From an uncultured archaeon (lineage in GTDB: Archaea > Asgardarchaeota > Lokiarchaeia > Sigyniarchaeales > SOKP01): 26,109 bases of DNA. This document shows positions 19,791 to 24,737 of the stretch, one piece after another (the stretch's first letter is position 1; the number at the start of each line of letters is the position of its first letter). Under the pieces are notes generated by a model, which saw nothing but the letters and a program-made list of their open reading frames with translations, had not been told where the DNA came from and ran no database searches. The stretch spans positions 1 through 26,109 of the forward strand of contig CAZGJX010000056.1 of the NCBI GenBank assembly GCA_964525635.1. Reading direction: 5' to 3'. The position numbers and the translations under genes are program-made.

Positions 19791-19913
19791 ATGAGAAAGA
19801 AAGAAAATTTAATAATTAATAGAGACCAATGGGAAAAGTTAAGAGATTATAAATTAAATTCTATTAAGAAAAGATTTTTAGAAATGCGTGAAATACAGCA
19901 ATATGGTTATTAG
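19791..19913 (+). CDS. 40-aa microprotein A, MRKKENLIINRDQWEKLRDYKLNSIKKRFLEMREIQQYGY
   Basis: Manual translation. GGAGA SD at 19780-19784. 18/40 ungapped identities with the paralogue at 20168. Confidence 0.85.
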   Translation: MRKKENLIINRDQWEKLRDYKLNSIKKRFLEMREIQQYGY

Positions 19914-20167
19914 ATCTTTATACCTTCGCTTTTTAATTTATTGTTAGAATTGATTGAATGCTTAATATTATCTGTATATTTAAATTTATGTTTTATCTGA
20001 TATTTTCCCGCTTTTTCTAATATATATTGAGTAGATTTACTTATCCATTCTATTTATTATAATTATGTTTTTACTCAAAAATTGGACTCTAATAATCATA
20101 AATATAAATTTATATTTTATTTTATTAAGAAAATATTTTAATTATAACTTATGGTTTAGTATAGAAA

Positions 20168-20290
20168 ATGAAAAAAAATAATAAATTAATGATAAGCAGA
20201 GAAAATTGGGAACTTCTAATAGAATATAAAAAAACTTCCTTCAAAAAGAGATATTCAGAATTATTAGAATTTGAACACATAGGGTATTAA
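20168..20290 (+). CDS. 40-aa microprotein B, MKKNNKLMISRENWELLIEYKKTSFKKRYSELLEFEHIGY
   Basis: Manual translation. Same length as microprotein A and colinear with it, with synonymous changes at conserved codons. Confidence 0.85.
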   Translation: MKKNNKLMISRENWELLIEYKKTSFKKRYSELLEFEHIGY

Positions 20291-20423
20291 TTTCCAATAA
20301 TATAATCCAAAAGTTTTAAAAATTAAATTAAAGTAGAACACTAAATCATATACTCAAATATATCTAAATTTCTTTTAAGATATTATCCTAATATTTTTAT
20401 GTTTCAAGAATCTAACCTAAGAT

Positions 20424-21988: not shown

Positions 21989-22085
21989 ATTTTTATTTAT
22001 CAATATACCAAAATAAAAACTTTTTAGATAATATATGGAATTGTTGTAAAATTTTATAATAATAAATAACTCTATTTGTTAGATA

Positions 22086-23825
22086 ATGAAATATGTGTTA
22101 AAACTAAAAAACTTGAAAAAAAAGAAGCAACTTTTCTTAATAATTTCATTATCTTTTTTTCTGATTGGTGTGTCTATTTTATATTCAACTAGATTTAATA
22201 GTTATATATATTTTAAAAGAATTAGATGTAATTCAGCAGGTGCAACAATCTCCGCGAATTTATATTTTCCAAAAGAAAATTTGGAATTCCAAGAAAAACA
22301 TCCACTTATTTTTTTTATTCATGGACTTGGAAGTCAAAAAGATTTAGATCCTCGCATTCCAATTGAATTAACAAAAAGAGGATTTTTTGTGGCTAGTATT
22401 GATTATCGAGGGAGTGGAAAAAGTACTGGAAATCTTTTAGATATTAATCATAATAATTATAGAAATAGAACTAATATTCCTGCGATAGCACAAGATTGTT
22501 CAAGATTACTAGATATGATAGAGTCTCTTCCTGAATATAGTCAAATAAATAGTTCCCAAATTGGATTAGTTGGACACTCGTTTGGTGGTATGGTAGCACT
22601 AATGAATGGAGCTTTAGATAATAGATTTATAGCAACAGTAACCTGGGCGGGATTAGTTAATTTTTCAGCAAATTTATTTGGGATAAGTGAGAATAATATT
22701 TTTATGGATTATATTCCAGCAAAAATTATTAACACCACAAATCCTCAAAATCTTTTACTAATCCATTCAATTTTTGATAAAACCGTCCCATATGAAAAAA
22801 ATGCTTTAGTTGCTCAACAATTAACTAATTGTGAATTGATAAATATAACTTATGATATCTTAGGAGGACCACATTATCTTTTAGCTGATGAGGTCCTTTT
22901 TAAAACAATTAATTGGTTTGAGATTCATTTTTTTAATTCAATATCAATAAATGGTCCAATTAAACTCTCTTATATGATGACCTATATTTTATTATTAATA
23001 ACGTTATTAGCTTTGTTTCTGACTACTATAGCTATAATGATATCAATATCAAAATATTTTTTTGATGAGAAAAATACAATAGTTTATTCAAATACTTCTG
23101 AAAAAAGAAATAGAACCAATGCTATAAAGCAATCAATAATAATACTTCTTTCATATATCGGTTTTCTACTTATTTGGATCTTTTTTTTTTATCACATGGG
23201 AATATATGGTCTAATTTATGCTCCAATTCTATTTATTGTTATCTACTTCATATTTATTATCACTAAATACTTCATAACTAATCATGAGAAAAAACAAATT
23301 TCATTATCTAATATTAAATATAGATTAAAAATTAAGATTAAATCCCATTTTAAAAGAGATGTATTATTATATCCAATTATCTCAACATTAATATTTATAG
23401 TATTATATTTCTCTATATCAATTTCTTATCCTTTTGCATATTTTTCACCATCAAATACATTAATATTTATCTTAACTTATACTATTTACCCTTTTTATTT
23501 ATCAATTGAAATTTTTTACAGAAAAGTAGTATATAAAAGATTAAATTTTATTAAATCTTCTACAAAAAAGGTGATCTTAACTAATATTATGGGGATCGTT
23601 AATATAGTCATTTTAATGATTTTATCTTATAATCTATTTTTAATAGTTGCTTTTTATGCTTCCTTTTTCGTATTTTTAGCGGTTATGATAATAAATTCAA
23701 TAATATATGAAAAAACAAATAAATTTAGTTCAGTATTAATTAGTTCGTTTATAATTATTCAGATTTTTTTTGGATCAGTGGTATCTGCATTATTTGGATT
23801 TGGATCATTGATTAGAATATTATAA
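22086..23825 (+). CDS. Membrane-anchored alpha/beta-fold serine hydrolase (S9-like) with C-terminal multi-pass membrane domain
   Basis: N-terminal TM, HGLG oxyanion motif, DYRGSGKS, GHSFGG nucleophile elbow, D in FDKTVP, H in GGPHY, then about 8 TM segments. Confidence 0.85.
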   Translation: MKYVLKLKNLKKKKQLFLIISLSFFLIGVSILYSTRFNSYIYFKRIRCNSAGATISANLYFPKENLEFQEKHPLIFFIHGLGSQKDLDPRIPIELTKRGFFVASIDYRGSGKSTGNLLDINHNNYRNRTNIPAIAQDCSRLLDMIESLPEYSQINSSQIGLVGHSFGGMVALMNGALDNRFIATVTWAGLVNFSANLFGISENNIFMDYIPAKIINTTNPQNLLLIHSIFDKTVPYEKNALVAQQLTNCELINITYDILGGPHYLLADEVLFKTINWFEIHFFNSISINGPIKLSYMMTYILLLITLLALFLTTIAIMISISKYFFDEKNTIVYSNTSEKRNRTNAIKQSIIILLSYIGFLLIWIFFFYHMGIYGLIYAPILFIVIYFIFIITKYFITNHEKKQISLSNIKYRLKIKIKSHFKRDVLLYPIISTLIFIVLYFSISISYPFAYFSPSNTLIFILTYTIYPFYLSIEIFYRKVVYKRLNFIKSSTKKVILTNIMGIVNIVILMILSYNLFLIVAFYASFFVFLAVMIINSIIYEKTNKFSSVLISSFIIIQIFFGSVVSALFGFGSLIRIL

Positions 23826-23840
23826 TCCTATTTTATAAAA

Positions 23841-24737
23841 ATGAAGCAAGTAATAAGTTTTAGTCGCAGAACAGATGGACCTGCTTTTTATATGGACCGT
23901 CTAATAAAAGCTATTGAAAAAGAAGTTATTAAAGTTCAAAATCCATTTAATAATAAAATTAGTAAAGTCTCACTAAGACCAGAAGATATCGCTGGATTTG
24001 TTTTATGGTCAAAAAATTTTGAATATTTCTTGAAAAAATGGGATATTTTTCTAAAATATATTCCCAAATCTACAATTACTCCAATTAATAAGATTCCTGT
24101 TTATTTTCAATTTACTCGAAATTCTATTAAAGAAATCCTTGAACCCTATACACCCTCTCTTGATAAAAGTTTTTATCAATTAAATGAATTAATTGAAATT
24201 ACATCCTCAGATCATATAATCTGGCGTTTTGATCCAATTATATTTTGGAAAGAAGATGATGTTATAGTTAATAATCTTAATGATTTTGAGGAAATTGCCT
24301 CAAAATTTAGTGAAAATGGTGTTAATAAATGTATTATTTCTTTTGCTACTTACTACACAAAAGTGGAAAGACGAATGAAGAAATATTCTTTTGATTACCA
24401 CAAACCCACTATAAAAGAAATGATCAAAACAGCAAAAGAACTTATAATAATAGCAAATCAATATAAAATTAAAATTTATTCTTGTTGTAATCCAGATTTA
24501 TTAAAGATTCCAGAAATATCTCAAGCTCATTGTATTGATGGTAAATATCTAAGTAAATTATGGAAAGTTAAACTTTCTCAAGCTAAAGATATGGGACAAC
24601 GAGAAACTTGTGGATGTACTAAAAGTCGTGATATAGGGGGTTATGGTAAGGATTGGCAATGTAATCATGGATGTCTTTACTGCTATGCAAATCCTAATCA
24701 AATGATCTATGAGCAAAATATCAGAAGAAACCATTAA
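23841..24737 (+). CDS. DUF1848 family protein (spore photoproduct lyase/radical SAM-related)
   Basis: ISFSRRTDGPAFY, NPFN, WSKN, WRFDPI, CC, CIDG, and QRETCGCTKSRDIG...CNHGCLYCYAN. Confidence 0.9.
   Translation: MKQVISFSRRTDGPAFYMDRLIKAIEKEVIKVQNPFNNKISKVSLRPEDIAGFVLWSKNFEYFLKKWDIFLKYIPKSTITPINKIPVYFQFTRNSIKEILEPYTPSLDKSFYQLNELIEITSSDHIIWRFDPIIFWKEDDVIVNNLNDFEEIASKFSENGVNKCIISFATYYTKVERRMKKYSFDYHKPTIKEMIKTAKELIIIANQYKIKIYSCCNPDLLKIPEISQAHCIDGKYLSKLWKVKLSQAKDMGQRETCGCTKSRDIGGYGKDWQCNHGCLYCYANPNQMIYEQNIRRNH

Follow-up and report, generated by a model that had tools for sequence, protein, structure and literature searches.

A candidate three-gene module of a Cys-repeat peptide, an RRE-radical SAM-SPASM enzyme and a small three-Cys protein in Lokiarchaeia

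Introduction

Which genes in a co-oriented row work together is the question raised by a 26,109-nucleotide stretch of DNA from an uncultured archaeon (GTDB lineage Archaea; Asgardarchaeota; Lokiarchaeia; Sigyniarchaeales; SOKP01), positions 1 to 26,109 of the forward strand of contig CAZGJX010000056.1 in NCBI GenBank assembly GCA_964525635.1, which we refer to throughout as the window. Between positions 19791 and 24737 it carries six open reading frames (ORFs) on the + strand, with gaps of 254, 133, 44, 97 and 15 bp, that encode two 40-residue peptides ending in GY (pepA and pepB, the GY peptides), a radical S-adenosylmethionine (rSAM) enzyme, a small Cys protein (p81), a hydrolase and a DUF1848 protein. 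The coordinates and gaps were confirmed, as were, by ORF translations and Pfam, the motifs by which an initial annotation had described the six genes. That annotation read the row as a single system for a peptide made by the ribosome and modified after translation (RiPP), with the GY peptides as precursors and a Cys-repeat peptide (the Cys peptide), encoded farther upstream at 16741, as an alternative substrate. We conclude with moderate confidence that the functional unit is not the six-gene row but a module of three genes, encoding the Cys peptide, the rSAM enzyme and p81, and that the remaining genes are bystanders, the GY peptides being found beside the module only in this genus. Of the RiPP reading two elements stand: a peptide-maturase-type enzyme with fused RRE, rSAM and SPASM regions, and a small Cys protein encoded in tight linkage with it. 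Neither the GY peptides nor the hydrolase nor the DUF1848 protein is counted as part of the system.

Results

The genome of the window (G000, 4.45 Mb; the window DNA is ∼25% G+C) was compared with related genomes and with individual loci, denoted here by G and L numbers, respectively. Presence of the enzyme was scored in 41 related genomes, 15 of which carry an orthologue, all within a single taxonomic family, and 26 of which do not. Orthologues of >50% identity are numerous and come from Lokiarchaeial assemblies. Thirteen orthologous rSAM loci from seven genera were compared, with every gene of the window mapped onto them, and the distributions of p81 and of the GY family were scored over the same 121 genomes of the taxonomic family.

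The enzyme gene (20424-21698, + strand) encodes 424 residues with an RRE-like region (∼1-85), a CxxxCxxC motif (121-128) and SPASM cysteines (331-417). Pfam Radical_SAM (PF04055) matches the protein with E = 8e-26, and ten cysteines are invariant across 30 homologues, namely those of the cluster motif C121-x3-C125-x2-C128 and the SPASM residues 331, 347, 383, 388, 394, 398 and 417. The latter follow the pattern C-x15-C ... C-x4-C-x5-C-x3-C ... C, in which the first spacing departs from the usual Cx2C; neither the Pfam SPASM model nor the Pfam PqqD model scored on the enzyme. A search of the PDB with a profile of the 30 homologues matched SkfB at 1e-27, and the profile alignments with CteB and SuiB start at residues 8-20 of the enzyme, taking in the RRE (leader-binding) domains of these proteins. 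The AlphaFold2 model (pLDDT, or predicted local distance difference test, 89) has an N-terminal domain of three to four strands and three helices, followed by the barrel and then the SPASM region. The RRE-like domain (strands 13-17, 21-25 and 30-34; helices 36-44, 51-56 and 60-75) is modeled with pLDDT >90, and Foldseek returned SuiB, CteB, SkfB and TigE as top matches (E 1e-14 to 3e-16), and also anSME. Sequence profile and predicted fold agree in giving the enzyme the radical-SAM core, the SPASM region and the N-terminal RRE of RRE-dependent peptide maturases, so that its initial description as an RRE-rSAM enzyme with a seven-Cys SPASM domain holds.

No curated NCBIfam or Pfam family covers the enzyme, the Cys peptide or p81. 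All of the 25 best NCBIfam matches listed for the enzyme fall below their own cut-offs. The best scores (∼100 bits, far under the cut-offs) belong to the heme and heme-d1 enzymes AhbD and NirJ and are confined to the core, residues 116-276; the sub-threshold alignments with the subtilosin maturase AlbA (69 bits against a cut-off of 850) and with PapB (73 against 340) span residues 33-402 and 111-408, respectively.

The gene that follows the enzyme gene encodes p81 (21743-21988, + strand), an 81-residue three-Cys protein (CHKCNFY...ECGAY; C26-x2-C29...C45). It adjoins the enzyme gene in all 13 orthologous loci and is the sole invariably adjacent gene among them; its sequence is 61-79% identical, that of the enzyme itself 52-69%, and residues C26, C29, F31, Y32 and C45 are invariant. 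p81 occurs in 15 of the 41 related genomes, exactly those with an enzyme orthologue, and in 24 of the 121 family genomes. The pairing is found at far more distant enzymes as well: p81-like genes encoding 46-73 residues (C-x2-3-C-x-F-Y ... E/Q-C-x-A-Y) lie directly before or after rSAMs of 33-37% identity at five loci from other metagenomes and one NCBI assembly (L026, L027, L029, L074 and L075). A profile search with the p81 domain gave 111 clusters, many with tandem two-domain proteins, and two of the three further members that were looked up adjoin an rSAM; the Atlas search with p81 returned unnamed clusters only. The predicted complex of the enzyme with p81 scored 0.01, which we count neither way.

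At L026 the p81-like gene is tandemly duplicated (5233-5701; 73 and 67 residues), and the domain also occurs fused head-to-tail within single proteins (e.g. P0123 and P0126), arrangements which suggest that its working unit is a dimer. At L027 (1-2260) a second, separate RiPP-like set, composed of a 37-residue peptide, a PqqD-family protein and two rSAM/SPASM enzymes, lies beside the distant pair of enzyme and p81-like protein.

The Cys peptide (16741-16860, + strand; 39 residues) has three CKCGGGC units and a basic leader, MKIVKKEKTTSTA, and comparative genomics favors this candidate, which had been put forward initially as the alternative substrate. A Cys peptide was detected in 12 of the 15 enzyme-carrying genomes; tandem CKCGxxxC repeats are present in 10 module-positive genomes and in none of the 26 module-negative ones. 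The peptide gene lies directly upstream of the enzyme gene at six loci (L013, L014, L017, L018, L022 and L025), the remaining flanking genes of which differ (a major facilitator superfamily transporter, a small GTPase, a zinc-ribbon protein and others). Homologues lie ≤0.8 kb upstream in G001, G002, G018, G024, G019, G012 and G007, the last encoding a one-unit peptide and being divergent from the enzyme gene, and at greater distances in G021 (3 kb upstream; CKCGGDAC twice), G006 (6 kb) and G011 (9 kb). The only invariant non-Cys residues of the CKCGxxC unit are its Lys and Gly, and searches with the Cys peptides gave no NCBIfam match at E up to 10.

The strongest argument comes from the distant homologues. 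Alongside four of the five distant pairs (L026, L074, L075 and L029) stands an uncalled ORF of 20-22 residues in which a basic leader is followed by C-x-C-x3-C at the C terminus (endings ACKCGSGC, LCKCKASC, ACACKKSC and TCKCHKSCM), and the leader motif M-x-I/V-K-K is kept in these peptides. Because the trio recurs beside distant rSAMs, we take the Cys peptide, and not a GY peptide, to be the cognate partner of the enzyme; the comparison also indicates that the module predates the Lokiarchaeial family. On this comparative evidence the Cys peptide is the most likely substrate of the enzyme.

Two T8 runs lie downstream of the Cys-peptide gene, which is therefore probably monocistronic. A second CKCGGGC peptide gene, of identical length, is present in G002 on a 3.3-kb contig (C124:2265-2942, L073); a DUF1848 fragment, 58% identical to residues 60-149, lies ahead of it, and the copy could derive from a variant strain or from partial duplication of the locus within this metagenome-assembled genome.

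The promoter of the Cys-peptide gene carries a candidate regulator-binding array (16579-16665, + strand) of four TCATAYT sites, at 16579, 16600, 16637 and 16658 with a unit spacing of ∼21 bp, a short way upstream of a TATA-like TTTAAAAAT. No other cluster of at least four such sites within 130 bp exists in the genome. Offsets of -84, -105, -142 and -163 are identical in five Cys-peptide promoters from four genomes and two genera, and the proximal pair (∼-85/-106) is retained in three more genera; no TCATAYT sites occur before pepA, pepB or the enzyme gene.

A three-site array of the same motif lies ahead of the nickel/cobalt importer gene cbiM (PF01891, E = 1e-54). In 18 cbiM promoters of the family (200 bp each) there are 24 forward and 0 reverse TCATAYT sites, the genome-average density being one per ∼2.5 kb per strand; in four genomes the distance between cbiM and the module is 2-10 kb, and the distant locus L029 adjoins LarC- and LarB-like genes. 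Given that the array is common to the Cys-peptide and cbiM promoters, it is reasonable to infer that the module product serves nickel/cobalt handling. TCATAYT-like sites, including AATACT variants, also precede cbiM in family genomes that lack the module, and hence the regulator seems to predate the placing of the module under its control. At the cbiM locus of G000 (C28:11790-15105, L043) a cbiM/cbiN-like pair is divergent from cbiQ/cbiO, and the three TCATAYT sites lie in the intergenic region that they share.

The GY peptides (pepA, 19791-19913; pepB, 20168-20290; both + strand) are paralogues, 45% identical (18/40), and belong to a small-protein family with the signature I-x-R-x2-W-E-x-L...KKRY. 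At ∼25% G+C an open frame of 40 codons is unusual in itself (∼2-3% by our estimate), and the ratio of nonsynonymous to synonymous differences (pN/pS) of the pepB orthologues from three same-genus genomes is 0.06-0.44, so that the GY genes are genuine genes under selection rather than ORFs open by chance. Their association with the enzyme is limited to the genus, both genes lying outside the conserved module. In G001 and G002 the place between the genes of the Cys peptide and the enzyme is taken by a single pepB orthologue (the copy in G003 is on a separate 1.8-kb contig), and at the 10 orthologous loci outside the genus the GY peptides are absent near the enzyme in every case, which speaks against the initial proposal that they are its precursors. 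Such an absence, and an occurrence of the peptides independently of the enzyme, had been named initially among the grounds for giving the proposal up, and both are seen. A profile built from four genus copies found the family in 48 of the 121 genomes, 40 of them without p81. GY family and p81 occur together in only 8 of the 121, and in four of these (G005, G008, G017 and G060) the GY-family and rSAM/p81 genes are on different contigs; in genus g2 the GY family is present in 15 of 41 genomes and p81 in 0 of 41, and in genus g11 the figures are 23 and 0 of 41.

Residues I9, R11, W14, E15, L17, K27 and R28 are conserved in the GY family, and the tails vary in length and sequence (GY, GC, GVY, SVC, NFAN, or 10-20 extra residues). 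The terminal Tyr had been named as a modification site, yet the ends vary even inside the genus (GY, GY, GC, GVY and SVC), and the G001 and G003 orthologues (pS 0.32) differ only in the tail, GVY in one and SVC in the other. A third family copy in G000, ending in NFAN (C64:15009-15113, - strand; L044), sits between a gene for a ZIP-family metal transporter and an OsmC-like gene.

The pepB model consists of a coil (1-10) and a two-helix hairpin, with a pLDDT of 86. Searches for the family found nothing in Pfam, PHROGs or the PDB profile search, and with the 40-residue model Foldseek gave no matches and VIA-align at most Z 3.5, to generic helical hairpins. The strand and two-helix pattern and a weak Atlas lead (DUF7557) had raised the idea of ribbon-helix-helix regulators, which found no support: a Pfam RHH_1 search of the genome identified nine other genes and not the GY genes, and hhalign of the family against the nine RHH_1 domains of the same genome gave a probability of 0.1%. 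An SRPBCC gene stands before pepA in the window, as one does before the GY homologues of L038 and L039. Since no relationship between the two SRPBCC proteins is detectable (E = 0.23), we set a conserved partnership aside as coincidence.

The hydrolase and the DUF1848 protein, both counted initially as members of the system, are likewise not tied to the enzyme. The hydrolase gene (22086-23825, + strand) encodes an alpha/beta hydrolase by its Pfam matches, with a GHSFGG motif and a long hydrophobic C-terminal half that forms a multi-pass membrane domain. It is a genus-only neighbor: among the 13 loci, the GY peptides and the hydrolase appear only at two same-genus loci. Full-length homologues of the hydrolase-membrane fusion are present in module-negative genomes (e.g. 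61% identity in G023), homologues in module-positive genomes lie elsewhere, on other contigs, and in five module-positive genomes none was found. The DUF1848 protein (23841-24737, + strand) matches PF08902 over its full length (E = 5e-69; 233 bits against a cut-off of 30.5) and has a C-terminal CxxxCxxC motif (CNHGCLYC). Its gene adjoins the enzyme gene at two same-genus loci and in one other genus, is present in 10 of the 10 module-negative family genomes examined, and is single-copy in all 24 family genomes examined, usually on another contig.

Between the Cys-peptide gene and pepB, ∼3 kb of the window holds further genes, including a 229-residue ORF, the SRPBCC gene and pepA; in G002 only ∼0.36 kb separates the Cys-peptide gene from pepB. 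Two Lys-rich ORFs of doubtful coding status (91 and 96 residues), which overlap and run in opposite directions, occupy positions 16976-17465, between the Cys-peptide gene and the 229-residue ORF. At the end of the window (24911-26104, + strand) three ORFs that follow one another with changes of frame (117, 143 and 97 residues), the last with a Cas12f1-like TNB domain (PF07282, E = 2e-24), look like a TnpB/IS605-OrfB-type gene in pieces.

Discussion

The preferred explanation can be put as a sequence of steps. The Cys-peptide gene would be expressed from its own promoter, the TCATAYT array of which is also found before cbiM, and its product would be a precursor with a basic leader followed by one to three C-terminal C-K-C-G-x-x-C units. 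The N-terminal RRE domain of the enzyme would bind the leader, and the radical-SAM core would abstract a hydrogen atom inside each CKCGxxC unit; with the participation of two auxiliary clusters in the SPASM region this could yield an intramolecular Cys thioether, or a related cross-link, one per unit. p81, with its ∼45-residue three-Cys domain, would be a folded, probably dimeric, metal- or cluster-binding helper and not a substrate, and the finished product would probably act in nickel/cobalt handling.

Several observations weigh against this explanation. The related genomes are kin, and the co-occurrence counts therefore overstate their independence. The Cys peptide was not found in 3 of the 15 module-positive genomes; in two of these the enzyme gene is at a contig end, and in G017 none was seen on the 15.2 kb of contig inspected. 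In the window itself 3.6 kb separates the Cys-peptide gene from the enzyme gene. Three-site TCATAYT clusters are near chance level in this genome (6 seen, ∼3.5 expected), so that the cbiM link draws on the enrichment across genomes rather than on this one. Thioether formation would consume thiols, which is awkward for a metal-binding role, and the three invariant cysteines of p81, together with its invariant Phe-Tyr, mean that p81 could itself be the substrate.

If p81 were the true substrate, it would receive intramolecular cross-links, as QhpC does from QhpD and CrpA from CrpC, and the Cys peptide would be a metallothionein-like metal buffer. This would fit the constant adjacency of p81 to the enzyme even at 33% rSAM identity, the invariance of its C26, C29, F31, Y32 and C45, and its precursor-like position at L027, L029 and L074, where the gene is directly upstream and abuts or overlaps that of the enzyme; archaeal rSAM/SPASM enzymes can moreover cross-link whole proteins (PMC13692751). 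However, p81 is conserved over its full length, above the level of the enzyme, and has tandem two-domain forms, as is typical of a folded domain rather than of a leader and core, whereas the Cys peptide has just such a leader/core layout and keeps its M-x-I/V-K-K motif beside distant homologues. We consider it unlikely that p81 is the substrate. A role for the enzyme outside peptide maturation, in a cofactor or metal center as for NirJ/AhbD or the tungsten cofactor, with metal or sulfur carried by the Cys peptide and p81, would draw on the AhbD and NirJ scores, the cbiM promoter link and the LarC/LarB-like genes beside L029. Those scores are well under the cut-offs and cover the core only, the RRE-type N terminus is a hallmark of peptide binding and the full-length structural matches are to RiPP maturases; to this proposal we give very little credence.

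The proposal that the GY peptides are the precursors has the RRE bind their N-terminal part, W14, Y20 or the C-terminal Tyr modified in an MftC-, PqqE- or triceptide-like manner and the hydrolase cut the leader. A GY-type gene does lie between the Cys peptide and the enzyme in G000, G001 and G002, the conserved N-terminal 35 residues and variable tail resemble leader and core, and one orthologue ends in GVY, as MftA does. Against these points stand the 10 orthologous loci with no GY homologue near the enzyme, the 40 genomes with the family and no p81, the copy between the ZIP transporter and OsmC genes, the four genomes with the family member on another contig, a terminal residue that changes inside the genus (Y, Y, C, Y, C), and the lack of linkage of the hydrolase. 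Genomes that lack the enzyme keep W14 invariant as well, and its conservation can therefore be explained without invoking modification by the enzyme. We judge it highly improbable that the GY peptides are the precursors; a weaker form of the proposal would make them a genus-specific second substrate.

The three-gene module of Cys peptide, enzyme and p81 has recognizable counterparts among characterized systems. In SCIFF (CteA)/CteB, a ranthipeptide system of Clostridia (PDB 5WGG/5WHY), the same fused RRE-radical SAM-SPASM enzyme stands next to a short Cys-rich precursor with a leader, and CteB is among the best fold matches of the enzyme, its RRE aligning by profile. Here, in contrast, the precursor is unrelated and much shorter (20-43 residues, with one to three CKCGxxC units), there is a third conserved gene, p81, the promoter array is of a nickel/cobalt type and the hosts are archaeal; the 25 best NCBIfam matches listed for the enzyme include no model of a SCIFF maturase, which places the module outside that family. 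PapB, which handles repeated Cys motifs individually in the PapA/PapB (freyrasin) system, aligns along most of the enzyme, as do the sactipeptide enzymes SkfB and AlbA, but the CKCGxxC unit lacks a CX3[D/E] acceptor motif. Mycofactocin (MftA/MftB/MftC) offers a likeness in its rSAM/SPASM enzyme and small peptide, and in the GVY end of one GY orthologue. An invariant C-terminal Gly-Val-Tyr together with an MftC-family enzyme was not found here: the GY tail is unconserved, the GY family is independent of the enzyme and MftC is not among the 25 best matches listed. Furthermore, the RRE of mycofactocin is a separate protein, MftB, whereas here it is fused to the enzyme.

The nearest characterized archaeal counterpart is CrpA/CrpB/CrpC of Methanococcus voltae, in which an RRE-rSAM-SPASM enzyme with three [4Fe-4S] clusters was shown experimentally to introduce ranthionine cross-links into an adjacently encoded, repeat-rich Cys substrate (PMC13692751). 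The likeness lies in the archaeal enzyme type and in a repeat-rich Cys substrate encoded alongside; the differences are that CrpA is large, with ten 17-residue repeats and C-x-x-Q/D motifs, that Crp has no p81-like gene, and that TIGR04463, to which the Crp enzyme belongs, does not figure in the 25 best NCBIfam matches listed for the present enzyme. Judged from profiles and the predicted structure, the architecture is of the ranthipeptide/sactipeptide type, with CteA/CteB, PapA/PapB and SkfA/SkfB as nearest relatives, and the module is set apart from these systems by its micro-precursor, by the p81 domain as an obligatory component and by its promoter link. We found no description of it in the literature on ACGX-type systems, Lokiarchaeial rSAM clusters or nickel-linked SPASM RiPPs, and to our knowledge no RiPP-type pathway has been characterized from Asgard archaea. 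Genome-mining surveys list Asgard rSAM RiPP clusters with no product characterized (PMC12144867).

The sole archaeal rSAM/SPASM thioether system studied, CrpABC (2026), acts on a large protein. The present comparison names a compact and testable trio of peptide, enzyme and helper, which recurs in distant lineages with the promoter signature of nickel/cobalt uptake. The window itself contributes a negative outcome for the GY, hydrolase and DUF1848 genes and a case in which precursor and enzyme are separated by ∼3 kb of extra genes. Its practical value is corrective, in that the CKCGGGC peptide and p81, rather than the GY, hydrolase and DUF1848 genes, are the candidates for expression work. More tentatively, and with doubt predominating, we propose that in Asgard archaea and other anaerobes the widespread trio makes a ribosomal product that serves as a chaperone, a buffer or a metallophore for nickel/cobalt, with the peptide gene under the control element of the CbiMNQO importer. 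If the nickel/cobalt link is true, the module would point to a new means by which anaerobes manage the metals of hydrogenases, carbon monoxide dehydrogenase/acetyl-CoA synthase and corrinoids.

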